From IMG/VR virus record IMGVR_UViG_3300037067_013258: a stretch of 20,000 nucleotides of DNA. One strand, written 5' to 3'. The translations under genes and the position numbers were made by a program. This stretch comes from an uncultured virus (IMG/VR IMGVR_UViG_3300037067_013258) (Duplodnaviria > Heunggongvirae > Uroviricota > Caudoviricetes). Below are positions 4,634 through 20,000 of this stretch, piece by piece (positions within the stretch are counted from its first letter, which is position 1; every line of letters begins with the position of its first letter). The notes beneath the pieces were generated by a model that saw only the letters and a list, made by a program, of their open reading frames with translations, did no database searches and had not been told where the DNA came from.

Positions 4634-4847
4634 CTATCAATACACTCCCTGATATGCTGTTTATAAGCATCATAGCCTCTTGCCTGGTTAACCATTCCTT
4701 ATTAAACATAATGTTGTGAATATAAGCAGCATCAATCAACACTTCTTCTTGCTGTGCAATATCTTTTTTAATCTCATCTGCTGCACTACCCGGTAAATCA
4801 AGCATATCCTTATCATCTGTTAAGTATTCATCTGTTAATCTCATCAA
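4584..4847 (-). CDS. Hypothetical acidic protein in the neck module
   Basis: 87 aa ORF with an ATGA overlap to the upstream gene; overlaps the downstream gene by 50 nt. Confidence 0.5.
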   Translation of the reverse strand: MMRLTDEYLTDDKDMLDLPGSAADEIKKDIAQQEEVLIDAAYIHNIMFNKEWLTRQEAMMLINSISGSVLIDETRRGKSEKAGTEYL

Positions 4848-5260
4848 GTGCTCCCTGTCTCATTTTCAGCAACCATAATGGGTGCCTGGTAACCTATAAT
4901 TTCACCAAAGGCAAGTAACGGATCAAGCAGTCCTATACACCACCTTTTGCCAAGGTAATCGACAATCGAATCCTCTGCATAGATTATTGTTTCCCAATCC
5001 ACCAAAAGGAACCGTGACATATTTGTCCCTAATCCTGCCGGTACAGCATCCGGCTTTAAGGGAATTCTGCTTTCGTGAGAAATTCTGCCTGTAATTGTAT
5101 GCTGCACAGCTGTACCAAAAGGGTTTTCTACCATTTGACCATGTCCATTATCAACCAATGGCAGGCGTTCAAGTATCAGAGTTTCCGGGTTTTCCAGAAT
5201 CACTTCCAACAGCCCCGCACGCTCCTGCGCAAGCATAAGTTCCCTATCCCCATTGGTCAT
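4844..5260 (-). CDS. Putative head closure / head-tail joining protein
   Basis: 138 aa beta-rich protein (LILER...DNGHGQ...D.I..LGKRW.I) resembling the SPP1 gp16 pattern; ATGA overlap with the adaptor gene. Confidence 0.6.
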   Translation of the reverse strand: MTNGDRELMLAQERAGLLEVILENPETLILERLPLVDNGHGQMVENPFGTAVQHTITGRISHESRIPLKPDAVPAGLGTNMSRFLLVDWETIIYAEDSIVDYLGKRWCIGLLDPLLAFGEIIGYQAPIMVAENETGST

Positions 5261-5754
5261 ACTTCACCCCCTGCAATTTCTGGATCATGAGTTGTGTACC
5301 ACTTCCCAGTTGTATTTAATGCAGCGGAATTATTGTTTGCTGTCAATTTCTTGTATAAGTCATTATAAAAAGCAAGCAAAGCACTCAGACTTGTATACTC
5401 TTTACTTTCAGCACCGGTTCCTGTTTTCACCAATAATCTTTTTGATGCTATCTGTGCAATAATAAGTTGTATCAACGAAGGCAGGGCAGCAGCAACACTA
5501 CCTGCACTTGTAATGTAAGCACCTATAGTTGCATCGGACAAGTACAATTCCTTTACTTTATAATCACCTGGTACAGCACCAGAGGTCTTGATAGTTGCCA
5601 TATAATATGTTGTACTCAAAACCTTATACACTGTTTGAGGTGTAGGGGTAGTAGGCAGACTCGAAGCGTCGGCAACCTGTGATATGGTAATGTACCCTGC
5701 TGGATCTGCAAGAGCTTGTCTAACCTGTGTTATTTGTGCAAATGTTACTGCCAT
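5257..5754 (-). CDS. Putative head-tail adaptor (SPP1 gp15 / HK97 gp6-like)
   Basis: N-terminal QVRQALADP, a YLSDATI motif and a G.ES.EY beta hairpin, as in connector proteins; first gene of the neck module. Confidence 0.65.
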   Translation of the reverse strand: MAVTFAQITQVRQALADPAGYITISQVADASSLPTTPTPQTVYKVLSTTYYMATIKTSGAVPGDYKVKELYLSDATIGAYITSAGSVAAALPSLIQLIIAQIASKRLLVKTGTGAESKEYTSLSALLAFYNDLYKKLTANNNSAALNTTGKWYTTHDPEIAGGEV

Positions 5755-6300
5755 TTACTCCACCCTATAGAACCAGCACCGGTTCTCACCTAATACAATT
5801 TTTTTACCAAACATTTCATCAACCGCTTTCTTTACTTCACCCTGATCTGGATGTGCATAGTCATGACCACTTATCCAGCCTCCCTTTTTCACTTTTGGCA
5901 GCCAGGCAACTATGTCATGCTTGCATCCTGCATATGAATGATCAGCATCAATGAACACCAGGTCAAGGGAGCCATCCGGGATATTCTTTGCCATTTCAGC
6001 ACTTTCACCCCGGAGAATCATGCACCGCTTTTTATACTGCCCTGCAATTGCTTTACAATTTGCATAAGTGCGGTCAAAGTAATCCTGTGCTTTTACCACA
6101 ATAGAAGCGTCACTTTTTGCATAGCTGCTTTCTACCGGAGGTTTTTGCCACCAATCAACCATATACAATATGAGCCCTGGATGTTTAATCAATAATTGCT
6201 TTGACAGTTTTCCATTATCAACACCAATTTCAGCAATTACCGGTGCTTTAATGTCCTTTACTCTTTTAAGTATTTCGTCCCACCGTTTTAATCCACTCAT
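5755..6300 (-). CDS. Class I SAM-dependent methyltransferase, Methyltransf_24-like
   Basis: Motifs AEIGVDNG, LYMVDWW, RGES, LDLVFIDADHSY, WLPKVKKGGWISGHDY and VKKAVDE. Confidence 0.9.
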   Translation of the reverse strand: MSGLKRWDEILKRVKDIKAPVIAEIGVDNGKLSKQLLIKHPGLILYMVDWWQKPPVESSYAKSDASIVVKAQDYFDRTYANCKAIAGQYKKRCMILRGESAEMAKNIPDGSLDLVFIDADHSYAGCKHDIVAWLPKVKKGGWISGHDYAHPDQGEVKKAVDEMFGKKIVLGENRCWFYRVE

Positions 6301-7766
6301 TTTCTTAAACCTACCTTTTCAATTATCGCATACTCCACTGTCTGTGGTTTTCTTCCGATACTTTTCGGCTTTGTAGCCTGTAAAAATTGATACACCTGAT
6401 ATTTGTTGTCACTCCATTGCATAATATAATCCGGTAATACTTTTCTGGTAAAATGAAAGGGGTCTGTGGGTGTTGCCTTTGATACCTCATGCTGTATAGT
6501 GTATTCTATAATTAAACGCCCTTTAGGTGACAATTGCTTAAGCCAGATTGGTATTGTTTCCATTGGATTGTATACATGGTCAAGGCAATTTGTAAAAACC
6601 ACATCCATCCTGCCTATCCAGTCAGGATTGACTTTATTAAAGTCCCATATAACTGTATGAGGGATATCCTTTAAATCAGGGCATATTTCAGTACCAAAGG
6701 CAGCACAGCCTTTAAGATATTTTCTAAACCATTTTTGCTCATCACCATTACGGGAGCCATGCACTAAAATAGTTTTTACATCGGGATTCAGACTTTTTAT
6801 CACTCCACAAAGATATTTAATATTCTCTTCCAGTTCCCATGTGGACTTTAAAGACGCTTTTTGTTTTGTGGCATTAATCTGTGCTTCCAGGTAAGCCCCA
6901 TAACCGCCTGCATAATGATAAAGATTTTCGTGCATTTCTCTTTCCTGAAGAGTAGAATTTTTAACTTTTCCAAACTTTTTGGGGTAGTTGATGATTTCTT
7001 TTTTAGTTATGCCTGCCAATGCTTCATACTTTTTCCATAACGCATAACACTTTTCCGTTTCTTTTGAAGTACGATCGTATAAACAAGCTTGTCGTAATTC
7101 TGATTTAATGTGAATGATGTACGCATCCTCATTAACCATAGGCCAGTATCCCCGGCAAAGATTGTAAATTGAACAGGGGATGTTCAACACGTGTGCTTGT
7201 TTATCGTTATGGTTTTCTTTATCAAAATAAAACCTGTCTTTAAATTCATTTATTACAGCACCAAAGGCCGCCTGATTCATGCCTGCATATTTCTTTATGT
7301 ACTTTGCATGGTAGGCATGATTTTTAAACATTTTCATATTTACATCTGCCCAAAGTTTCATGAAATCTTTTGCTTTTTGTGTGTTCTTTACAAACACCAC
7401 ACCGCCATTATAAGGCAGACTGCCAATGCTGTGTTTTGTGACAGCAACATCAAAGCTTTTATTAAATACAGACGACAGGTCTTTTAAAACAAGCATGTCA
7501 CAATCCATAAATACAATATAATCATTTGGGTGCTGCTCCATAACATTTACCCAATCATTTATTTTAACAGTGTTCGATATCATGCATCTTTTTGGGGTGC
7601 CGTGTGTATCGGGTGCAGGACGTTTATTCAGTATCACCTTTGCATTAGGATTGTTTGCTTTTGCACTACATTCCCATACCTGAGAAAGTACTGCATAAGC
7701 ATTTGATTCTCTAAAATCAAAAACATCTGCAAATAAAATAACTTCTGGTTTCTTTTCTTCAGCCAT
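6297..7766 (-). CDS. Glycosyltransferase (GT-A, DxD; GT34/GT77/GT8-like) fused to a C-terminal class I SAM methyltransferase-like domain
   Basis: N-half: IVFMDCDMLV (DxD), FDVAVT, YNGGVVFVKNT, GMNQAAF, IPCSIYN, IIHIKS. C-half: ILVHGSRNG.E, FGTEI, DVVFTNCLDHVYNP, WLKQLSPKGRLIIE. Likely start is ATG 7766 (TAATG overlap, AAAGGA SD) rather than 7775. No transmembrane segment seen. Confidence 0.8.
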   Translation of the reverse strand: MAEEKKPEVILFADVFDFRESNAYAVLSQVWECSAKANNPNAKVILNKRPAPDTHGTPKRCMISNTVKINDWVNVMEQHPNDYIVFMDCDMLVLKDLSSVFNKSFDVAVTKHSIGSLPYNGGVVFVKNTQKAKDFMKLWADVNMKMFKNHAYHAKYIKKYAGMNQAAFGAVINEFKDRFYFDKENHNDKQAHVLNIPCSIYNLCRGYWPMVNEDAYIIHIKSELRQACLYDRTSKETEKCYALWKKYEALAGITKKEIINYPKKFGKVKNSTLQEREMHENLYHYAGGYGAYLEAQINATKQKASLKSTWELEENIKYLCGVIKSLNPDVKTILVHGSRNGDEQKWFRKYLKGCAAFGTEICPDLKDIPHTVIWDFNKVNPDWIGRMDVVFTNCLDHVYNPMETIPIWLKQLSPKGRLIIEYTIQHEVSKATPTDPFHFTRKVLPDYIMQWSDNKYQVYQFLQATKPKSIGRKPQTVEYAIIEKVGLRK

Positions 7767-8452
7767 TACACACATCCTTTGAAATCATAATAATACTGTT
7801 CACCTTCGATAAAATTTATCTTGCCGCCAAGGTAACGAAAAATAGCGGTGCGTGAATGTTTGGGATGTTCAATAAATTCAAATACCTTTTTATTTGCATT
7901 CATCAAATCCCTTTGATACACCCTGGATTTATAATCATGAAAATCTTCATAAAAATAAAAATCCATAAAAAAAATTTTAGTCAATCCTGGTATAAAATAG
8001 GGTTGAAACATTTTAAGGATACAGTCTGTTATGCCTTTATCAATCCCGATATCGTCAATCAATAATTGTACAGGTTCCCAAATATATGCAAAATCCTTTA
8101 TGTTCTTTTTAAAATAAACAATATTTGCACCCGCATCCATAAAAGGCTGTAGGTTTTTTACAAAAGACGCCTGCAAATCTGTTGTTTCAACGTGTCTGCT
8201 TTTCAACCAAACCCTGTATTTTTCTTCGATTTCCCATTTATCAATGGCATATATCCTTGATGCTTTATTTCCAGCATCAATCAAGCCACGTGATAAAAAA
8301 GCAGTGGTGGAACCAAGGAAAGGAGCAATGTCTACTATGGCATTTCCTTGTTTAACTTCTTTAGCAGCGTTAAAAAGAAAACCCTTTATCTTACGCCCAC
8401 CGTTTCCCATTTCTGGTATTTTGTTTGCAAGTATTTTTATGTCTTCCATCAT
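7766..8452 (-). CDS. Class I SAM methyltransferase-like protein (paralog of 8453..9097)
   Basis: IVDIAPFLGSTT (variant motif I), IYAIDKW, LLIDD, FQPYFIPG and QRDLMNANK align with the upstream gene. Confidence 0.75.
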   Translation of the reverse strand: MMEDIKILANKIPEMGNGGRKIKGFLFNAAKEVKQGNAIVDIAPFLGSTTAFLSRGLIDAGNKASRIYAIDKWEIEEKYRVWLKSRHVETTDLQASFVKNLQPFMDAGANIVYFKKNIKDFAYIWEPVQLLIDDIGIDKGITDCILKMFQPYFIPGLTKIFFMDFYFYEDFHDYKSRVYQRDLMNANKKVFEFIEHPKHSRTAIFRYLGGKINFIEGEQYYYDFKGCV

Positions 8453-9097
8453 TTACCCTAAATATAAGAAAAAAGCTTCACTTGATTTGTCACCATTAGG
8501 ATTAACAATCCTGAATAAGTACTTGTAATGCTGCTTGTTTGCTTCCATGAAATCACGTTGGCATTCATACCCTTTACCTGGTTTCTTTTCCCAATAATGA
8601 AAATCGAGCAAACCCACAATTGTTTTTTTTGGAATAAAAAAGGGTGAAAATGTTTTCATGGTGTGCAAAAATGCATCCCTTTTCTTACTTGCATCATCAA
8701 CAAACAAACCGATTTTGCAATTTCCGTCATACTTGGCAGATTTAATGTCACCCCGGTGCATGATGAAAGGAATATCAAAAGGCTTTAAACTTTTCTGCAC
8801 CATTTCAAAATAAGACTTTTCACTCTGTAGTTCCACACCAAACTTAGCAGCTTTTTCAACCTGTGAAGTATATGTGATAAATCGGTCATACATATGCAAG
8901 GTGACATTTGTCTTGCCACTTTCTTTGACTCCCAGCATCATAGCAGCAGTACATGCACCGAGCCATGTCCCCACCTCTACAATCACCTGCCCGTCTTCCA
9001 CCTGTTGTGCATATTCACGTAATTTGTCTTTTACGGTCTGCCAATTCATAGACGGTATTTTCAAAGCTTTTTTTTCTAATGTTGCTATCAGCATCAT
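8453..9097 (-). CDS. Class I SAM-dependent methyltransferase, Methyltransf_24-like
   Basis: IVEVGTWLGACT (motif I), LHMYDRF, HRGDI, IGLFVDDASK; SD AAGGAG, so the start may be the second ATG at 9094. Confidence 0.85.
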   Translation of the reverse strand: MMLIATLEKKALKIPSMNWQTVKDKLREYAQQVEDGQVIVEVGTWLGACTAAMMLGVKESGKTNVTLHMYDRFITYTSQVEKAAKFGVELQSEKSYFEMVQKSLKPFDIPFIMHRGDIKSAKYDGNCKIGLFVDDASKKRDAFLHTMKTFSPFFIPKKTIVGLLDFHYWEKKPGKGYECQRDFMEANKQHYKYLFRIVNPNGDKSSEAFFLYLG

Positions 9098-9111: not shown

Positions 9112-9139
9112 AAGGGCAGGGGTTTGCACCCCCACCCTT
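9112..9139 (-). terminator. GC-rich hairpin after the major capsid gene (weak terminator or mRNA stabiliser)
   Basis: Minus strand AAGGGTGGGGGT-GCAA-ACCCCTGCCCTT: 12-bp stem with two G-U pairs and a GNRA loop, followed by only a short U run and then the next SD. Confidence 0.6.
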
Positions 9140-9150
9140 AAGACCTTACA

Positions 9151-10410
9151 TTAGGTTTCCGATGTTGGTAATTCGATCTTTACTACGTAACCAAAGCCAG
9201 ACACATACTTTGTGCCAGCCAGATCACCGGAAGATCCCATCCACTCATCATAGTAACTGCCGTAACAATACCACCAGGCACGCTGTTCCTGTGTGAGAGT
9301 GAGCACGCTGCCTCTCCCCACTTCCTGTGTCAACGGTGCTTTGTTGATTGTGAAATACGGTGCTCCGGCTGTACCAGGCACTACCAGGTAGGCTGTGTTT
9401 GCAGGAACCCCATCAAAGCTGACAACCTCTTCACCCCATACCCACGAATCGCCCTTGTACACCAGGATATCATTGATGTCGATTGGTGAGAGGTTGATGA
9501 CTTTTGAATTTTCACCGCCTCTCAACTGCCCGTAAATAACCCGGTTGATAGCCCAGCTTGTTACCTCATCACCCATAATAAGCATGAGTCTCGGTGCAGG
9601 AATTGCTTTCCCGGTCTGCATGTCGAACAGCCCTTTGACACGTTTGTAGGCCTTCAGTATTGTGTTGTACACACGCTCATCATATGTGTCACCTTCAGTG
9701 TCAGCCGGTTCTACCTGTGACGTGTGCCAGGTTGCATTGATCAAAGGCCCCATTACAGTATCATTTCTTTCACCCCTGTGTGCCTGGGCAACAGCGTCAA
9801 ACACTTTCTGCATGGAAAATATGTCCAGGTCGAAAAGTACAGAATACAAATCCCGGTCAAATCCGATATCCAGAATCTTCAGGTCAATCGAGGATTTTGC
9901 ACCTGTTTTCTGTTGGATCAAAGGCACCTGCCCACCTGAAACGTATTTTTTGAACTTACCAGCAAAAGGCAACATTTCCCTGATTGGAAACGGGTTAGCC
10001 GCATTTGGCCTGGTCGATTCTGCCGATATAATACCCGTAATGTCAACCTCATCTGCCGCTCTCCGGGTTATGTCCATCATGATAGCCGGGAACAGCTCAT
10101 AATAGTCAGGGGGAAAACCCATTGTATTGGATTTCAATTCATTCTTTACTTTCTTGCGCAGGTGCTCGATCTTGTCCCATGCTTCCGCTTCAGTTTTTGA
10201 CCCTTTGTACTTTCCTTCACCAATGGAAAGTCTCTTAACCATTGGTTTTCCTGTACTGTCCTTCATAACATAATCTTCAGCATTCTGTTTTTCTGCGACC
10301 ACTTTTCGCGATTCGTCATAACCAGCGGAAATAAACACTTTTTGTTTATTCCGTCTTACGATTTCTTCCGGTGTCAGAATAATATTTTTAACTTCGTTAG
10401 GTGCTGTCAT
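9151..10410 (-). CDS. Major capsid protein (HK97 fold presumed)
   Basis: 419 aa; perfect SD AAGGAGG; follows the protease/scaffold and decoration genes and is followed by a hairpin. GGQVPLIQQKTG resembles the E-loop 'G..vp' pattern. Confidence 0.8.
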   Translation of the reverse strand: MTAPNEVKNIILTPEEIVRRNKQKVFISAGYDESRKVVAEKQNAEDYVMKDSTGKPMVKRLSIGEGKYKGSKTEAEAWDKIEHLRKKVKNELKSNTMGFPPDYYELFPAIMMDITRRAADEVDITGIISAESTRPNAANPFPIREMLPFAGKFKKYVSGGQVPLIQQKTGAKSSIDLKILDIGFDRDLYSVLFDLDIFSMQKVFDAVAQAHRGERNDTVMGPLINATWHTSQVEPADTEGDTYDERVYNTILKAYKRVKGLFDMQTGKAIPAPRLMLIMGDEVTSWAINRVIYGQLRGGENSKVINLSPIDINDILVYKGDSWVWGEEVVSFDGVPANTAYLVVPGTAGAPYFTINKAPLTQEVGRGSVLTLTQEQRAWWYCYGSYYDEWMGSSGDLAGTKYVSGFGYVVKIELPTSET

Positions 10411-10425
10411 CTACTCATCCTCCTT

Positions 10426-10854
10426 TTAGGTTGTTGGTTCTAATTCCCAAAATCTTTTTTTCAGGAATGCAAAATTGAGTGCTGTTGCTGTCTGTATTTG
10501 GCTCACATGCCCTACCATGTACCATCCGGCAACGGCCACACTGGAAAACATGCGTGTGGCCGTGTCAAACCACACTTCAGCACGAAGAGTCAAGAATGTG
10601 CTTCCGGCAGCGATTCTATCCGAACCCACTGCATAGTCAATCCCTTCTTCAATCGTACCATGACATTCTGCACCAATAGCAGCATCATCTTCAGCCGCCA
10701 ACACGTACGGCCCCACTATTTCCAGATCACCGGGTTCTGTTGCATGTGTTGCTGTAAAGTCAATATGGTTCTCACATCCAGGCCGACCAACTGTCACAAA
10801 ACCTGTGTAATTTGTTCTCACATCCTGATTTGCAGGCCAATCATTTAACACCAT
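10426..10854 (-). CDS. Head decoration / capsid cement protein (DUF2190-like)
   Basis: 142 aa, beta-rich (PGDLEIVG...AEDDAAIGAE...VWFD...VG.V); SD AAGGAGG; directly upstream of the major capsid gene. Confidence 0.6.
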   Translation of the reverse strand: MVLNDWPANQDVRTNYTGFVTVGRPGCENHIDFTATHATEPGDLEIVGPYVLAAEDDAAIGAECHGTIEEGIDYAVGSDRIAAGSTFLTLRAEVWFDTATRMFSSVAVAGWYMVGHVSQIQTATALNFAFLKKRFWELEPTT

Positions 10855-10865
10855 AGGTTACCTCC

Positions 10866-12338
10866 TTATTCCACTTTTTCAACAGGCACACTGTTGAAGC
10901 CTTCATACGGTTTGTCTGCTGGTTTCTTCTTGTCACCAACCACAACATTGATTTTGCTTTCACCGTCTGCAAACTGCTCTGCAATGGACTTGGCTACAAT
11001 GTCATTTTCTTTGAAGTTTTTCAAAGCAGCATCATAATCTTTGTCCAGTACATTACCGAGTTTCTCTCCCGCATACGCACGCAGGGCATTGGCTTTTTTC
11101 TCATTACCGATTGTCAGTTCCAGAAAGCCGAACTCTTTGTCCAGCCTGGCATTCCGCATAATGGAGAAATTCATTTTTACGTTTTCACGTAATTCTGTGA
11201 TTTCCTTCACCGGATTGTCACAACCTAATGCTTTCAAATCATTCACTGTTTTGACTGCATTTTTATGCACATCCGTTACAATTTGATCACTTACTCCAAA
11301 CACCTGTACTACTTCGGGGAATGTCAGGGTATTGGCTTTAAGTGAATCAATAATTTCTTGTTTTGTAGGCATATTATCCCCTTTATTATAAGATATATTA
11401 TCACCGGGAACCCCGGATTCTTTCTTGTCAATCAAACCTATCAATTCACTTGCTGTGTTTGATAGTTCATCCCAATCCTGTTGGCCTGCTCTGCTTGCAA
11501 CTGCACGTAAACCAGACCGGTACAACTTTCCATTTTTTCCAAAGACATATTTGTATCTGCCTTTTGTTTCTTCGTTATAAGCAGTGTCTTCCACAAAAAA
11601 CCATTTCTTGTAATTTGCCCAGTCATTATCACCGAGTATCTTGTCACTGTCTTCACCTGTGAATGACCAGGAACTGGCAGCATCGTACTTGCCTGAATTG
11701 ATCAAGCTTTTTGCATGTCTCACACTTGCGGTCATGATGCTTTGAGTTTCTGCTTTATTTTTTTTATGGTTTACCTTTTGTTTCATAGCACCTGCACCGT
11801 TATCAACTACGTCATTTCTTTCTGCACCTTCACTTGCAACTACATGCCATTCCCATTCTCTGTCTTCATTCATCCTTAATTCATCCCTGGTCATGCTTAC
11901 AAGGGAAAAATGGATCATGTTTGACCGGAATTCTTTTCTTAAGTTCCCATCACCGGGCAGCAAGTAATTTTTGAAATACACCTTTCCAGTTCCATCACCA
12001 TTTGATTTAACCAAGCCACCCACCAACAGCAGGTCAGTCTTGCCCCGTGCACCATATGAATGCCCCAATGCACTGCCTGCAAATGGTCGTTTTGTATTGG
12101 ATTCCAGAAAAGATTTGAAAAAGCTTTCATCATAGAAATAACCATTTGCTTTAATCGGAAAGCTGATTTCCTGTATGGCATATACCGGATTGTCCTCCGT
12201 TATCCATTCTTTAACGGCAGCTTCCGGTATAAGTGTTGGAATTGTTACCGGATCAATAATCAACTTCTCTTCATTATATTTCAAAGGCTGACCACAATTC
12301 AGCCTATGCATCTGTCCATGTTTTATTTCAGGTTTCAT
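10866..12338 (-). CDS. Prohead protease-scaffold fusion
   Basis: N-terminal beta domain with KANG..Y, candidate catalytic His (LGHS) and Ser (HFSLV); charged helical C-terminus; SD AAGGAG; sits between the minor head and capsid genes. Confidence 0.65.
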   Translation of the reverse strand: MKPEIKHGQMHRLNCGQPLKYNEEKLIIDPVTIPTLIPEAAVKEWITEDNPVYAIQEISFPIKANGYFYDESFFKSFLESNTKRPFAGSALGHSYGARGKTDLLLVGGLVKSNGDGTGKVYFKNYLLPGDGNLRKEFRSNMIHFSLVSMTRDELRMNEDREWEWHVVASEGAERNDVVDNGAGAMKQKVNHKKNKAETQSIMTASVRHAKSLINSGKYDAASSWSFTGEDSDKILGDNDWANYKKWFFVEDTAYNEETKGRYKYVFGKNGKLYRSGLRAVASRAGQQDWDELSNTASELIGLIDKKESGVPGDNISYNKGDNMPTKQEIIDSLKANTLTFPEVVQVFGVSDQIVTDVHKNAVKTVNDLKALGCDNPVKEITELRENVKMNFSIMRNARLDKEFGFLELTIGNEKKANALRAYAGEKLGNVLDKDYDAALKNFKENDIVAKSIAEQFADGESKINVVVGDKKKPADKPYEGFNSVPVEKVE

Positions 12339-14997: not shown

Positions 14998-16350
14998 TTA
15001 TCCCTCATACTTGTAACCAGAATTGTCACGGGAAGACATACGCTTACGGAAATCAGGATCGAACACCCTTTGTGGGTTGTAAAAACAAAGCAGCAAAGCG
15101 TCTGCTTTGTCAGGTGATCTACCAAGTCTCTTTTTAAAGTCGGCCTTTGATTCTATGTGATATCTGTGCTCATGATCATACTTGTATTGTCTTCCACATA
15201 ATTCCTGCCGTAGTTGATTATCATTAGGCAATTGACATTTATCCAAAAATTGATTTTTAAATTCAAACCATAATTCAGTTGGCAAATCATGGTACTTATC
15301 TCTATTTATCGGACTCTGTGAAAAATTAACCGGGTTTACATTCATCCCCATACTGCGTAATTGGTCCCTTGCAGACGTTCCAATGCCCGTAGAATCAATA
15401 TTTATCTGCACTGTTTTATCTTTGTTAACCATCCCAGCAGCTTCATTGGCTATGGTTATTCCATCCATTTTGGATAATTCTTTATATTTGATTACTTTCA
15501 ACCCTTTTCTTAAGTACATTTGTGTTTTATCATCCCCAAAATCTGCCGGGTCAATCCCCAAAACCATTTGACCTTCAAAAACAATTTCCCTGCTCATGGC
15601 TTGATCCACAAGTACCCTGCTTATAACAGAATTCTGTCCTTGTTTCCTTGGCTGCCCGCCGTATTGATGCAGCCATTCATCATAATCCCTTTTTTTAAGC
15701 TCTTCTGATTCTTTTGGCAATTCAGTATCATTCCACCAGGGATTGTCCGCATTTTCAGGCTCACAAAATACAGCCAAAGTATCGCTTCTGTTTGAATTGA
15801 TAAATATTTCCATAACAGGATCATTGTCATTTTCAGGGTTAAACGTTATCCAGAATTGTGATCCGGGTTTACGTAATGTAGGCAGTATCATATCCCATGA
15901 TTCTCTGCTTATGGCACTTGCTTCTTCAATTCTGAACACATCAAAAGATTCATAGCTTTTCACCTGTTGTGAAGCACGTATGTCTTTTAATCCTCTGAAA
16001 ATATATGTACTTCCAGCAGGTGAAATAATCTTTTCATTCTGAAATTTCCATCCCGGATAACGAAGACGGTCTACTTGTAACATAATATCTTGATAAGATG
16101 ATTCTTTTAAACTTTCCTGTATTTCTCTAAAGCAAGCTATTCTTAATTTGCTTCTATGTGCTCTTTGAACTAAAAGTGAATCAAAGCTCCAAGTTTTACA
16201 GCCTGCACCTCTGCCACCATAGGCAACATTTATACGATGTTTACTACCCCTGAATTGTTCAAGTTTCGGGGATACCTTTTCTAACTCCTTTTGTTTGGTA
16301 AGGAATAAAAAAGCATTCTTTTCTTTTTCAGTTACAGGGGCACTACTCAC
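14998..16350 (-). CDS. terL: Terminase large subunit, PBSX / Terminase_3 type
   Basis: Walker A-like YGGRGAGCKT, CFREIQESLKES, FRGL, Walker B RIEEA, PTLRKPGSQFWITFNP, nuclease LGIDPADFGDD and RSPDKADAL. Probable start is GTG 16350 (SD AAGGTGA), in frame with the 16395 ORF-track start. Confidence 0.95.
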   Translation of the reverse strand: MSSAPVTEKEKNAFLFLTKQKELEKVSPKLEQFRGSKHRINVAYGGRGAGCKTWSFDSLLVQRAHRSKLRIACFREIQESLKESSYQDIMLQVDRLRYPGWKFQNEKIISPAGSTYIFRGLKDIRASQQVKSYESFDVFRIEEASAISRESWDMILPTLRKPGSQFWITFNPENDNDPVMEIFINSNRSDTLAVFCEPENADNPWWNDTELPKESEELKKRDYDEWLHQYGGQPRKQGQNSVISRVLVDQAMSREIVFEGQMVLGIDPADFGDDKTQMYLRKGLKVIKYKELSKMDGITIANEAAGMVNKDKTVQINIDSTGIGTSARDQLRSMGMNVNPVNFSQSPINRDKYHDLPTELWFEFKNQFLDKCQLPNDNQLRQELCGRQYKYDHEHRYHIESKADFKKRLGRSPDKADALLLCFYNPQRVFDPDFRKRMSSRDNSGYKYEG

Positions 16351-16864
16351 TATCACCTTTCTTTTGCTGATTATCAGCCATAATCCTTGATGCAAGTTCT
16401 TTTATCTGCTTTTCCCTCTCTTCATCTGTCATTTGGGTAAGTGCAAGGTTCTCTCCCATTTCACCAATTTCCACTTTATCAGCCATGCCAAGCCTGTTTT
16501 TAGCTGCAAAAATAACAAGGTTGTTATCGTGCCAATCTCCAGTTTTTACCTGGTTCCAAAAATGCCTACGAAACGAACATTTCCCAGCCGCACTTTTTTG
16601 CTCGTAAAATTGGGAAAAAGTCAACCCTGTAAGTTTTATGAGGTTTGATTCGATTGTTTTTCTATCCAATTTCATAACAGATTCAATTTCTTGTTGTGTG
16701 CATAATATTTCACATAATTCTGTAATAAGATTAATATCAAATTCTTTTTTTGGCCTTCCACCCTCTCCAGGCTTAGGGCCTTTGCCCCTGTTTTTTGTAA
16801 AATTGGCCGGCTTTCCTTTGACTATTTTTGCTTTCTTAACTGATTTTTTCTTTTCTTTTGTCAT
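16343..16864 (-). CDS. terS: Terminase small subunit
   Basis: GGRPKKE, an HTH-like CTQQEIESVM segment, GK.SFRR and IFAAKNRLGMADKVE are typical TerS motifs; overlaps TerL. Confidence 0.85.
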   Translation of the reverse strand: MTKEKKKSVKKAKIVKGKPANFTKNRGKGPKPGEGGRPKKEFDINLITELCEILCTQQEIESVMKLDRKTIESNLIKLTGLTFSQFYEQKSAAGKCSFRRHFWNQVKTGDWHDNNLVIFAAKNRLGMADKVEIGEMGENLALTQMTDEEREKQIKELASRIMADNQQKKGDSE

Positions 16865-16890
16865 ATTGTAGTACTCTTATACTACAATAT
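16863..16890. repeat. Perfect 11-bp inverted repeat over the terS -10 element and start codon
   Basis: ATATTGTAGTA-ctctta-TACTACAATAT. Confidence 0.85.
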
Positions 16891-16913
16891 AGCATATTTT
16901 TAGCAGTTGTCAA
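16886..16913 (-). promoter_or_regulatory. Sigma70-type promoter for the terminase/structural operon
   Basis: Minus strand TTGACA (16913-16908), 16-bp spacer, TG-C-TATATT extended -10 (hexamer 16891-16886). Confidence 0.7.
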
Positions 16914-18366: not shown

Positions 18367-18394
18367 AAATAAAAAAGCCGGAATAATCCGGCTT
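18367..18394 (-). terminator. Rho-independent terminator
   Basis: AAGCCGGA-ataa-TCCGGCTT hairpin followed on the minus strand by a U-rich tract (TTTTATTTT). Confidence 0.85.
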
Positions 18395-19589: not shown

Positions 19590-20000
19590 TCACTCAAACC
19601 TTGGCACGTCAGTGCGGTGCATTTCATTGGCATACGGCTTTAAGATTTCCATAATTTTCTTTTCGTCATCTGACAAATCCGGCGCATTTTTTAGCATGTC
19701 GAATAAATGATAAGAAATTTGCGCCCGAAAACGCCTATCGGTAATCATATGCAAACTGCCACACCAAAGAGGGAGACAGGAAAAATCAAATTCCGCCCCG
19801 TTCAATTTCGCCCCGATCAATTTCGCGTTGTTCAATTTCGCGTTGTTCAATTTCGCCCCGATCAATTCCGCGTAGTTCAATTTCGCGTTGTTCAATTTCG
19901 CCCCGTTCAATTCCGCGTTGTTCAATTCCGCGTAGTTCAATTCCGCGTAGTTCAATTCCGCGTTGTTCAATTTCGCGTTGTAGGGAAAAACAATATTAAT
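19590..20000 (-). CDS. Pentapeptide-repeat protein (5' end probably outside the window)
   Basis: A(E/K)L(N/I)(N/Y/G) repeats followed by DFSCLPLWCGSL...QISYH; the frame stays open from 19970 to the window edge (INIVFPYNAKL). Confidence 0.85.
   Translation of the reverse strand: MNIVFPYNAKLNNAELNYAELNYAELNNAELNGAKLNNAKLNYAELIGAKLNNAKLNNAKLIGAKLNGAEFDFSCLPLWCGSLHMITDRRFRAQISYHLFDMLKNAPDLSDDEKKIMEILKPYANEMHRTDVPRFE
19791..19980. repeat. 15-bp coding tandem repeat, about 12-13 units
   Basis: Plus-strand units such as TTCAATTTCGCGTTG, TTCAATTCCGCGTAG and TTCAATTTCGCCCCG. Confidence 0.95.

Follow-up and report, generated by a model that had tools for sequence, protein, structure and literature searches.

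A glycosyltransferase-methyltransferase cassette in the head gene block of an uncultured phage: predicted glycosylation of virion protein C-terminal tails

The head gene block of the uncultured phage IMGVR_UViG_3300037067_013258 contains a cassette of four enzyme genes on the minus strand (positions 5755-9097 of the 20,000-nucleotide stretch analyzed here, referred to as the window). What do these enzymes modify: the phage particle, the host envelope, the phage DNA or a soluble saccharide? With moderate confidence, we predict that the C-terminal tails of virion proteins are O-glycosylated and that the attached sugar is then O-methylated more than once. If true, phage particle glycosylation would extend beyond the mycobacterial phages, in which it has been demonstrated.

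Gene organization

All four ORFs are present 3' of the major capsid gene and are translationally coupled (Table 1). The stop and start codons of MT_A and MT_B abut (TAA/ATG, 8453/8452), MT_B and the fusion gene overlap at TAATG (7768-7764), the fusion gene and MT_D overlap at ATGA (6300-6297) and the MT_D stop codon abuts the next start codon (TAA/ATG, 5755/5754). The preliminary description had claimed such a chain of abutting or overlapping codons, and every junction that it named is found in the sequence. The fusion ORF (6297-7766) encodes 489 aa when counted from the ATG of the TAATG overlap; a second open in-frame ATG is located upstream at 7775. No strong promoter or terminator was found within the cassette. 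The stem-loop between the capsid and MT_A genes has a predicted folding energy of -24.8 kcal/mol (z -2.28; 5 of 200 shuffles equally stable) and is a putative attenuator or mRNA stabilizer.

Table 1. Features of the cassette region in the window
Feature	Position	Strand	Evidence or remark
138-aa protein, ends ..ENETGST, candidate third acceptor	4844..5260	-	10/12 orthologs Ser/Thr-ended
Conserved 165-aa protein 3' of cassette	5257..5754	-	Orthologs hold same position in relatives
MT_D, Methyltransf_24, 181 aa	5755..6300	-	PF13578, E-value 5.8e-16
C-terminal class I methyltransferase domain of fusion, aa 288-489	6297..6905	-	Model and fold matches
Lys-rich disordered linker of fusion, about aa 256-287	6906..7001	-	pLDDT <50 for 261-286
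Glycosyltransferase (GT) domain of fusion, aa 1-255, GT-A, DxD (D88-C-D90)	7002..7766	-	PF03407 and fold
MT_B, paralog of MT_A, 228 aa	7766..8452	-	BLASTP vs MT_A
MT_A, TylF/MeT1-like sugar O-methyltransferase, 214 aa	8453..9097	-	AF2 model, Foldseek
Stem-loop, 12-bp stem, no U tract	9112..9139	-	Directly 3' of capsid stop; then AAGGAG and MT_A start
Major capsid protein, 419 aa	9151..10410	-	Profile A5 vs PDB 9gay_A
Capsid C-terminal codons T-S-E-T, past conserved core end 'LP', candidate O-glycosylation site	9154..9165	-	Alignment A5
Head decoration/minor capsid protein, 142 aa, ends ..ELEPTT, candidate acceptor	10426..10854	-	

The cassette had been placed between the capsid and head-tail adaptor genes. 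The capsid side of this placement stands: because profile A5 matches PDB 9gay_A ("gp49 major capsid protein"; E-value: 6.3e-17), the gene upstream of the cassette is identified as the major capsid gene. On the adaptor side, the 165-aa protein has no match in Pfam, PHROG or PDB, and its putative adaptor label derives from position only. Profile A7, representing the decoration protein, matches PDB 9gay_C ("gp48 minor capsid protein"; E-value: 1.5e-7), and phrog_122 ("head decoration") matches both the window protein (E-value: 0.0018) and its ortholog in the relative L016 (E-value: 1.8e-12). At the position of the 138-aa protein, the relative L179 encodes a protein with a Big_2 Ig-like domain.

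Glycosyltransferase and methyltransferases

The cassette content of one GT domain and four methyltransferase domains is supported by profile and fold matches. The GT domain has the conserved domain PF03407 (E-value: 3.9e-5; 24.2 bits, cut-off 22), and its D88-C-D90 motif is invariant across 27 homologs. In the structure model it has a GT8/GT77-like GT-A fold, with GlyE, PBCV-1 A064R domain 1, Skp1 alpha-GalT, the GT8 structure 3tzt, glycogenin, UGGT and LARGE1 as neighbors. Enzymes that glycosylate proteins or protein-linked glycans dominate the nearest solved folds. In the C-terminal domain of the fusion, the modeled secondary structure is of Rossmann type and the fold matches DnrK, RdmB and chalcone O-MT, while Pfam matches to Methyltransf_23/31 are sub-threshold; in the relative L008 this domain is encoded by its own separate gene.

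Of the four methyltransferase domains, MT_D alone passes the Pfam cut-off, bearing out the likeness to PF13578 suggested earlier, while the other three are below threshold. MT_A (AF2 model pLDDT 94.3; PF13578 E-value: 0.034, sub-threshold) is most similar in fold to MeT1 (6g80/6g7d; E-value: 9e-10, TM 0.72), with SpnH (4ce0), NovP (2wk1) and MycF (4x7z) also among its top Foldseek matches; all of these are sugar O-methyltransferases. MT_B shares 29% identity with MT_A (E-value: 7e-17) and retains all eight invariant residues of family alignment A2; its ortholog in L002 matches PF13578 with an E-value of 6.4e-4. These two proteins are paralogs of the MeT1/SpnH/MycF-like sugar O-methyltransferase type. 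MT_D has the conserved residues E-x-G, D49, D118-x-D120-H121 and G-H-D. The best PDB sequence match of its family profile (A3) is also MeT1 (6g7d; E-value: 0.0098), and alignments A2 and A3 match each other with an hhalign probability of only 7.5%. Mannosides are given as the methylation substrates of MeT1 in a passage of PMC9883506. The GT-A and sugar methyltransferase folds do not fix the acceptor.

Cassette position in related phages

Homologous GT and methyltransferase genes occur in 25 contigs (window included) of this phage clade, always within the head block. In 18 contigs they follow the capsid gene, in three they are located at or before the portal gene, in two they separate portal from head-morphogenesis genes and in two they separate head-morphogenesis from protease genes. 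Among these approximately 25 metagenomic contigs, cassette composition varies, and identity to the structural proteins of the window is only 30-55%. A survey for linkage to structural genes had been proposed; every related contig examined that has a cassette carries it within the head block, and a GT homolog is present in 12 of 12 viral contigs found using the capsid protein alone. In other lineages, the cassette is located between GpA-type terminase and lambda-type portal genes (L009) or 3' of a T4-type terminase gene (L018 and L038). The cassette is both conserved and mobile within head modules.

C-terminal tails of head proteins

In cassette-bearing phages, the decoration protein ends in Ser or Thr in 16/16 cases, the capsid protein in 20/25 and the 138-aa family in 10/12, compared to 11/133 in nine other structural families. 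The usual form of the tail is an acidic "..ET". Terminal Thr is found in 19 of 25 capsid orthologs, following an extension of two to eight mostly acidic residues. Among 63 capsid family representatives with a recognizable 'LP' core end, tails reaching at least three residues beyond 'LP' end in Thr in 18/36 cases and shorter tails in 1/27. The cassette is directly downstream of the capsid gene in 18 of 19 cases with a Thr tail, versus none of nine without the Thr tail. This co-occurrence of the cassette with C-terminal Ser/Thr tails on head proteins is new.

The 57 such ends in 24 cassette-bearing contigs comprise 46 Thr and four Ser, compared to no Thr and two Ser among 13 ends in five relatives without a cassette in view (Fisher p ~9e-7, for hand-coded residues and uncorrected for shared ancestry). 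Three of these relatives (L120, L180 and L181) have terminase to tube in view and two (L151 and L152) are partial. In L120, L180 and L181, Pfam detected no other GT or methyltransferase within the head block, and the decoration-like protein is longer (232-270 aa) in all cassette-free relatives. As these relatives may form a single branch, the co-occurrence could reflect one or few evolutionary events. The same tail type is found in two other phage lineages having homologous enzymes. Tails in the separate lineage L018 are ..AIT (decoration), ..ADEET (capsid) and ..VIDET (Ig-domain protein), and the L014 capsid protein ends in ..GDGQT. Terminal Thr could instead be conserved for capsid assembly.

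Proposed model and alternative targets

In the proposed model, the cassette would be expressed late and act as a soluble unit that builds a glycan on proteins of the phage particle itself. Using a nucleotide sugar supplied by the host, the GT-A domain of the fusion would O-glycosylate Ser/Thr at the very C-terminus of virion proteins; candidate acceptors are the head decoration (..EPTT), major capsid (..LPTSET) and 138-aa (..ETGST) proteins. The fused and three free methyltransferases would then O-methylate hydroxyls of this sugar using S-adenosylmethionine as donor, and the stem-loop 3' of the capsid gene may reduce expression of the enzymes compared to that of the capsid protein. The predicted acceptor tails fit virion glycosylation. 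The identities of acceptor and sugar, the choice of this sugar as the target of O-methylation and any benefit to the phage are inferred. The shielding against glycosidases, antibodies or capsid-sensing defences put forward in the preliminary description is speculative.

An unlikely alternative is that the target belongs to the host, being either a glycan of the cell envelope or a protein of the cell surface (lipo-oligosaccharide, teichoic acid, capsule, S-layer, pilin or flagellin), which could be modified for receptor masking, exclusion of other phages or keeping progeny off debris. Relatives' cassettes include phosphonate-synthesis, LicD, APS-kinase, UDP-sugar-dehydrogenase-like and ATP-grasp genes. 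Of these additions, LicD, PEP mutase/cytidylyltransferase with TPP decarboxylase, TupA-like ATP-grasp and APS kinase point to the envelope, as such genes are mostly familiar from the decoration of cell-envelope glycopolymers. Stand-alone GT homologs also favor this target, as they have a K/R-rich C-terminal tail where the fusion has its Lys-rich linker (at least five K+R in the final 15 residues in 18/23), and such tails are said to mediate membrane association in some GT8 enzymes. Furthermore, a distant GT relative in a Rhodospirillales MAG (hhalign probability 93.7%, E-value: 1.9e-7) is accompanied by a Methyltransf_11 gene and another GT copy; the group is flanked by FlaF/FlgK/flagellin genes on one side and a TPR protein gene on the other and looks like a flagellin-glycosylation island, which counts in favor of the proposed model as well. 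However, the window cassette is coupled within a late head operon and lacks a strong internal promoter or terminator. A crude Kyte-Doolittle scan of its four proteins found no hydrophobic 19-mer above 1.6, and a Pfam scan of the 24 window ORFs found no sugar-nucleotide synthesis, flippase or polymerase genes, in agreement with the original view of a soluble system; the lack of a membrane segment, flippase or polymerase argues against an envelope target. Integrase families are absent from 100 ORFs of three near-complete relatives, making lysogenic conversion unlikely. Envelope modification would also leave both the restriction to the head block at four insertion points and the matching Ser/Thr tails unexplained.

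Hypermodification of the phage DNA with a glycosylated, possibly methylated, base to evade restriction is improbable. Complete relatives encode true DNA methylases (N6_N4 and C5) in the replication block, outside the cassette, and the cassette methyltransferases resemble Methyltransf_24/TylF, not C5 or N6 DNA methylases, although the MT_D family is labeled "DNA methyltransferase" in PHROGs. A cultured cyanophage homolog adjoins a 2OG-Fe(II) oxygenase, as DNA modification might predict, but the TET/JBP family is absent from the window ORFs and from 100 ORFs of relatives, and a thymidylate-synthase homolog is absent in five relatives (four at least 97% complete by CheckV). We know of no DNA role for LicD, PEP mutase or APS kinase, which counts against this target. 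Passages of bioRxiv 10.1101/2023.12.21.572611 cut both ways: 5hmC is glycosylated by phage GT-A enzymes related to LPS/teichoic-acid enzymes, in clusters also found beside terminase/structural genes, but ~65% of GT-containing contigs have no base-modification partner.

It is very improbable that the product is a soluble methylated sugar or oligosaccharide made off the virion in the infected cell, like mycobacterial methylmannose polysaccharide or a small-molecule glycoside: although free oligomannosides (MeT1) or antibiotic sugars (SpnH, NovP and MycF) are the substrates of the closest solved kin of MT_A and MT_D, and glycogenin-like GT8 enzymes can build chains, such a product has no obvious use in a late head operon and would leave the co-occurring C-terminal tails and head-block position unexplained.

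Comparison with known systems

GlyE of S. pneumoniae, Skp1 alpha-galactosyltransferase, glycogenin and PF03407 share the DxD motif, GT-A fold and soluble architecture of the GT domain, whereas identity to these GT8/GT77-type retaining GT-A protein glycosyltransferases is 10-13%. Similarly, the TylF/MycF/NovP/SpnH/MeT1 family shares a conserved SAM-motif glycine and acidic residues with the cassette methyltransferases, and resembles MT_A in fold (TM 0.66-0.73) with 11-16% identity.

Chlorovirus PBCV-1 modifies its capsid glycan with A064R (and A061L), and A064R, like the window fusion, joins a GT-A domain to a C-terminal methyltransferase. The likeness proposed earlier is upheld by the A064R domain 1 structures 2p72, 2p6w and 2p73, which give some of the strongest fold matches to the GT domain (E-value: ~4e-8, TM 0.67-0.70 on target). 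BFVD entry M1IF74 (638 aa), a putative A064R ortholog judging by its length only, aligns across the whole fusion model. However, the fusion lacks the middle second GT domain of A064R, no sequence-level match between the two was found, and the glycan on which A064R acts is N-linked and belongs to a eukaryotic virus.

The DNA-hypermodification clusters described in passages of Pyle et al. (bioRxiv 10.1101/2023.12.21.572611) also combine phage GT-A enzymes with further genes for sugar modification, in some cases close to terminase/structural genes. Unlike these clusters, the cassette neither contains nor adjoins a 5mYOX/TET, thymidylate-synthase homolog or cytosine methylase gene.

The closest known systems are those of Che8 and Corndog. 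Freeman et al. 2023 reportedly found virion O-glycosylation in the actinobacteriophages Che8, Corndog and Myrna. The window's phage belongs to a different clade, with genomes of 32-51% GC. The GT-methyltransferase fusion has no sequence match among 50,697 phage records at an E-value of 1e-3, MT_A has a single weak match, to mycobacteriophage Boilgate (24% identity), and the Che8 GT gives only a low-TM fold match at rank 21. The ratio of GT to methyltransferase is also inverted, with one GT and four methyltransferase domains here. The preliminary description knew of no characterized bacteriophage system with this make-up, but overlooked the Cluster O mycobacteriophages, whose enzymes modify capsid and tail tube according to a passage of PMC11600133 (citing Freeman 2023). 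As in the window, actinobacteriophages have soluble GT and O-methyltransferase genes within the head-gene block (PMC4351075). In mycobacteriophages, capsid and tail-tube subunits carry their glycans at the C-terminus according to a passage of PMC12619734 (citing Freeman 2023), and here it is the C-terminal Ser/Thr tails of capsid-associated proteins that track the cassette.

Organization of the head-gene block

The window corresponds to the structural half of the genome of a siphovirus-type phage, and every gene is on the minus strand. The 419-aa protein is the major capsid protein: PDB 9gay_A, "gp49 major capsid protein", is matched by a profile built from 13 orthologs (E-value: 6.3e-17). The 142-aa protein encoded before it is a decoration or minor capsid protein, with matches to 9gay_C, "gp48" (E-value: 1.5e-7), and phrog_122, "head decoration". 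The terminator-like hairpin and the sigma-70-like site downstream of it, the best in the window, may mark where one unit stops and the late operon begins.

Features of the window and of related contigs or loci (L-numbers) found by the searches
Feature	Location	Strand	Assignment or remark
Pentapeptide-repeat protein, 126 aa	window 19590-19970	-	PF00805, E-value 4e-12; window edge, upstream of structural genes
Terminator-like hairpin	window 18375-18394	-	clean, with T run
Sigma-70-like site	window 16886-16913	-	TTGACA, 16 nt, TATATT with TG
Large terminase	window 14998-16395	-	Terminase_3, E-value 4.8e-26
Portal-sized gene	after large terminase	-	
Head-morphogenesis gene	after portal-sized gene	-	phrog_1657, E-value 1.5e-45
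Protease/scaffold-like gene	window 10866-12338	-	ortholog matches head-maturation protease phrog_94, E-value 1.8e-46
Decoration protein, 142 aa	window 10426-10854	-	
Major capsid protein, 419 aa	window 9151-10410	-	
MT_A	window 8453-9097	-	cassette methyltransferase
MT_B	window 7766-8452	-	cassette methyltransferase
GT-MT fusion, 489 aa	window 6297-7766	-	cassette glycosyltransferase-methyltransferase
Lys-rich linker of GT-MT	window 6906-7001	-	disordered
MT_D	window 5755-6300	-	cassette methyltransferase
165-aa protein	window 5257-5754	-	
138-aa protein	window 4844-5260	-	
Four small genes, then tube-like gene	after cassette	-	gene order
Tape-measure protein	last in gene order	-	PF10145, E-value 2.2e-39
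APS kinase	L004:7391-7963		E-value 9.5e-42
UDP-glucose/GDP-mannose-dehydrogenase-like proteins	L007:8330-9091; L013:931-1812; L015:14230-15000		short (253-293 aa), N and central domains only
TupA-like ATP-grasp protein	L019:13443-14312		
PEP mutase, TPP-enzyme and LicD genes	L017:11088-13332; L150:1929-3191; L016:12749-13372; L017:14810-15391		all in head-gene block
Ig-like protein	L179:11742-12392		Big_2 domain, Thr end; position of the window's 138-aa gene
Long terminase, 789 aa	L016:3017-5386		split tblastn match
Long head-morphogenesis proteins, 628-642 aa	L011:3977-5863; L016:6822-8750		
LexA DNA-binding-domain protein	L013:4756-5490		within head block
Putative flagellin-glycosylation island	L041:4325-14683		Rhodospirillales MAG
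MT_D homolog, Synechococcus phage ACG-2014f	L177, NC_026927.1:28798-29352		annotated "DNA methyltransferase"

The preliminary description had placed a cassette of four coupled enzyme genes directly after the capsid gene. This observation is confirmed, and all of the gene junctions that it named are found in the sequence; the glycosyltransferase gene forms part of a translationally coupled chain behind the capsid gene. Its "head-tail adaptor" label for the gene following the cassette is a guess from position, because the 165-aa product has no family or structure match and its profile has none in PDB and PHROGs. A consensus scan finds no strong promoter or terminator within the cassette. The capsid stop codon and a strong AAGGAG site before the first enzyme gene flank a 12-bp stem-loop (-24.8 kcal/mol, z -2.28), which lacks a U tract.

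Base composition does not mark the cassette as foreign: its genes have 33.6-41.6% G+C, inside the 29-47% range of the other genes (window 38.9%). The cassette seemed lower in G+C in a 1-kb profile, but the per-gene outliers are instead the capsid and decoration genes.

Glycosyltransferase and methyltransferases

GT-MT is modelled as two domains separated by a disordered Lys-rich linker (pLDDT 83.7). The glycosyltransferase (GT) domain matches PF03407, a GT77/GT8-like family of nucleotide-diphospho-sugar transferases (24.2 bits, gathering cut-off 22; E-value: 3.9e-5), a precomputed assignment shared by most of its homologs, and its DxD motif (D88, C89, D90) is invariant in 27 sequences. Residues 1-255, mostly with pLDDT above 90, form a GT-A fold with Foldseek E-values of 1e-8 to 1e-7 to GT8 and A064R structures. 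Among solved structures, those closest in fold are GlyE of S. pneumoniae, domain 1 of PBCV-1 A064R, Skp1 alpha-galactosyltransferase, a GT8 protein, glycogenin, UGGT and LARGE1. Residues 288-489 match the folds of class I O-methyltransferases of the DnrK/RdmB type. The fusion is retained in homologous proteins P0001, P0002 and P0004 (the last from contig L002), while in L008 the methyltransferase (MT) domain is a separate gene.

A basic C-terminal tail is found in 18 of 23 stand-alone GT homologs (among P0005-P0029), with 5-10 K/R and almost no acidic residues in the last 15 positions; in the window fusion, the Lys-rich linker takes its place. The basic tail or linker may contact membrane, nucleic acid or the acidic acceptor tails discussed below, and that it faces such acceptor tails is speculation. 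Complex prediction pairing the GT domain and the decoration protein scored 0.01, which is uninformative on binding either way.

The earlier count of one GT and four MT domains stands, although three of the four MT calls are based on fold or paralogy with only sub-threshold Pfam matches. MT_D is a clear Methyltransf_24 member and the only one of these proteins to reach the gathering score of PF13578 (59.7 bits against 26.3; E-value: 5.8e-16); MT_A and MT_B score 15.5 and 12.7 bits. The MT_A model (pLDDT 94.3) is most similar to sugar O-methyltransferases, namely MeT1 of Mycobacterium hassiacum (E-value: 9e-10, TM 0.72), SpnH, NovP and MycF. MT_B is a paralog of MT_A (29% identity, E-value: 7e-17) in which the eight residues that are invariant in the family alignment are all conserved, and it is assigned to the sugar O-methyltransferase type by this paralogy. 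The best PDB sequence relative of MT_D is again MeT1 (E-value: 0.0098), which methylates methylmannosides at the 1-OH (PMC9883506). The MT_A/B profile has no meaningful match among PDB sequences, and hhalign joins the MT_A/B family to the MT_D family with a probability of only 7.5%, such that their kinship is based on fold and weak Pfam matches. As TylF/MycF/MeT1-type enzymes, MT_A, MT_B and MT_D are predicted to carry out SAM-dependent methylation of a sugar hydroxyl.

PHROGs gives the MT_D family the putative label "DNA methyltransferase". The sole homologs of MT_D in cultured phages (37% identity) belong to cyanomyoviruses, where they adjoin a 2OG-Fe(II) oxygenase after the tail-fibre genes and bear the same annotation; given the Methyltransf_24 fold, this may be too specific.

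Cassette placement in related phages

Homologs of the GT-MT protein are metagenomic only (29 with E-values of 1e-3 or better). In 50,697 phage records, the window has no near or protein matches and GT-MT gives no tblastn match at 1e-3. Single-protein scans of viral contigs with GT-MT or the capsid protein found no matches, and alignment queries were needed. An alignment-based scan of IMG/VR returned 37 loci, 20 of them strong, and mapping of the window proteins on these defines a single phage clade, with structural proteins 30-55% identical to those of the window and genomes of 32 to 51% G+C. Further members came from four scans (capsid protein, metagenomes, terminase and tail-less capsid proteins). 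The terminase-based scan, aimed at cassette-free relatives, gave 80 loci (L066-L145), nearly all with the terminase alone in common and one useful (L120). The terminase is mosaic: several of these loci are 43-52% identical in terminase with no other head protein common to the window. The long terminase of L016 and the long head-morphogenesis proteins suggest inserted elements. A fragment with 87% identity has been binned with an Ignavibacteria MAG, and the host is probably non-actinobacterial.

GT/MT homologs occur on 25 contigs including the window (near-identical L004 and L005 counted as one), and the linkage to structural genes holds in all 25, always within the head-gene block. Four insertion places are used: 18 contigs have the cassette behind the capsid gene, L015, L051 and L154 have it at or before the portal gene, L013 and L179 between the portal and head-morphogenesis genes, and L016 and L017 between the head-morphogenesis and protease genes. 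The number of GT paralogs per cassette ranges from one to three and that of MTs from one to four; L002 has the exact four-gene order of the window at 34-61% identity. In other lineages the cassette is also in the packaging/head block, flanked by a GpA-type terminase and a lambda-type portal in L009 and after a T4-type terminase in L018 and L038.

The GT family is rare in species-representative bacterial genomes (four loci, one of which, L038, is a phage-like region). L041, from a Rhodospirillales MAG, encodes two copies of a distant GT (hhalign 93.7%, E-value: 1.9e-7) and a Methyltransf_11 protein between FlgK/flagellin/FlaF and a 559-aa TPR protein, and looks like a flagellin-glycosylation island. 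Across 401 genomes of the class to which this MAG belongs, the family gives four weak partial matches, inside larger proteins.

C-terminal tails of virion proteins

The C-termini of all structural families were compared across unique contigs. Ser or Thr is the last residue in 16 of 16 decoration proteins (Thr in 12), 20 of 25 capsid proteins (Thr in 19) and 10 of 12 138-aa proteins (Thr in 9), as opposed to 11 of 133 proteins (Thr in 5) in nine other structural families pooled. The capsid tail is a mostly acidic appendage of 2-8 residues beyond the conserved core end "LP"; its terminal Thr is conserved and the residues before it vary. Among the 63 of 150 capsid-family cluster representatives with a recognisable "LP" end, tails of at least three residues end in Thr in 18 of 36 cases and in Ser in 5, compared with Thr in 1 of 27 shorter ends.

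The tails co-occur with the cassette. It lies directly downstream of 18 of 19 Thr-tailed capsid genes and of none of nine tail-less ones. Where it lies elsewhere in the head block (L016, L017, L154 and L179), the capsid protein is tail-less and the proteins at the decoration and 138-aa positions still end in Ser/Thr. L120, L180 and L181, viewed from terminase to tube, have no GT/MT by tblastn or Pfam; together with the partial contigs L151 and L152, in which no cassette is in view, they have no Thr and two Ser among 13 such ends. The 24 cassette-bearing contigs have 46 Thr and four Ser among 57 ends (Fisher p ~9e-7 against the cassette-free contigs, with hand-coded residues and shared ancestry ignored), a statistic weakened because the cassette-free relatives, all with a longer decoration-like protein (232-270 aa), may form one branch.

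There are partly independent replicates. L018 has a terminal Thr on its decoration (phrog_122), capsid (PF25209) and Ig-domain proteins, with "..DEET" and "..IDET" as the last residues of two of these. Thr ends are also found on the capsid protein and several neighbours in L014 and on the tube protein in L019 and L020. The Ig-like domain in L179 hints that the 138-aa family is exposed on the particle. Ser/Thr ends on these virion subunits would be compatible with an acceptor there.

Accessory genes

The cassettes of relatives contain further genes, including an APS kinase, short dehydrogenase-like proteins, a TupA-like ATP-grasp protein, LicD (L016 and L017) and other class I methyltransferases. 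L017 also encodes a cytidylyltransferase-PEP mutase fusion with a TPP (phosphonopyruvate-decarboxylase-like) enzyme, and a 62% identical copy directly follows the capsid gene in L150. The PEP mutase, TPP-enzyme and LicD genes suggest phage-made phosphonate- or phospho-substituted glycans. A full-text literature search combining PEP mutase, phage and capsid found no paper describing such genes.

Proposed model

The preliminary description interpreted the cassette as the source of a methylated-glycan virion coat, a plausible but unproven reading that the comparative data strengthen. Enzyme types, linkage to the head block and the tail-cassette co-occurrence are shown by the data; we infer the acceptor, sugar and methylation target as follows. 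Judged by position, the enzymes would be produced late, alongside the virion proteins. The GT-A domain would transfer a sugar from a host nucleotide sugar to the terminal Ser/Thr tails, and the four MT domains would then O-methylate the attached sugar. We consider such virion-protein glycosylation with methylation somewhat probable.

Rather unlikely, by comparison, is modification of the host envelope or a host surface protein. Such a role would agree with the envelope-type accessory enzymes of the relatives and with the basic GT tails, but leaves the tight coupling in the head operon unexplained and does not fit the Ser/Thr tails. In addition, no membrane parts were found, and no integrase family is present in 100 ORFs of three near-complete relatives. 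By Pfam, those ORFs and the ORFs of the window also show no 5mYOX/TET-type or thymidylate-synthase family, a thymidylate-synthase homolog (PF00303) occurs in none of five relatives, and the true DNA methylases of the relatives sit in the replication block; hypermodification of DNA is improbable, despite the real precedent of phage GT-A enzymes (bioRxiv 10.1101/2023.12.21.572611). Synthesis of a free methylated saccharide, to which the genomic context lends no support, is very improbable.

If the virion proteins are indeed glycosylated and methylated, the product might, as a bold guess, be a permethylated monosaccharide. A hexopyranose linked via C1 has four free hydroxyls, which matches the one GT and four MT domains of the window and L002. 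A broader joint reading, which we regard as unlikely when taken whole, is that a widespread environmental phage clade and at least two other lineages use a portable tag (a short acidic Thr-ended tail on capsid, decoration and neck proteins and in some cases on tube proteins) that guides a glycan factory, encoded by the phage and evolving fast, to the surface of the particle. Here, four MT domains acting on the four free hydroxyls of one sugar would leave a hexose cap that is hydrophobic and O-methylated throughout; relatives would instead use decorations with a phosphonate, a LicD-type phospho-substituent, sulfate or an amino-acid-amidated uronic acid. Phages of non-actinobacterial hosts would thereby have a variable coat resembling an O-antigen.

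Comparison with known systems

To our knowledge, phage particle glycosylation has been demonstrated only in a few mycobacteriophages, and Freeman 2023 reportedly found little evidence for it among phages at large. The window locus and about 25 relatives would extend the trait to another clade of environmental phages, one that is diverse in GC content and uses other enzyme families. The terminal Ser/Thr tails represent a concrete sequence tag that can be tested with peptides and might allow glycosylated virions to be predicted by sequence alone. Virus coats of unusual chemistry are hinted at by the variable accessory genes for phosphonate, LicD and the activation of sulfate, and such coats could affect adsorption, stability or recognition of the phage particle. 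A search of the literature since 2023 on GT and MT with "virion glycosylation" found no description of the clade.

The suggested likeness to PBCV-1 A064R ("glycosylation of the major capsid") is borne out, with 2p72, 2p6w and 2p73 matching the GT domain (E-value ~4e-8, TM 0.67-0.70 on target). Both proteins have GT-A and MT domains on one chain, an echo in fold and layout. Unlike the three-domain A064R, however, the window fusion consists of two domains and a disordered linker, with no second GT domain, and PDB sequence searches give no match to A064R at E-values up to 10.

The closest known systems are the virion glycosylation cassettes of actinobacteriophages. In Corndog, an O-methyltransferase, two glycosyltransferases and a putative N-acetylglucosaminyltransferase are encoded between the genes for portal and protease (PMC4351075), and these enzymes are said to modify both the capsid and the tail tube (PMC11600133). 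Mycobacteriophage virion glycans are placed on C-termini (PMC12619734, citing Freeman 2023). The window locus has no sequence-level homology to Che8 or Corndog, and in fold the Che8 GT Q855A2 matches only at low TM (0.22-0.26). Judging from its genes, the window locus would work in the same way as the actinobacteriophage cassettes, but with the opposite enzyme ratio and in another phage clade.
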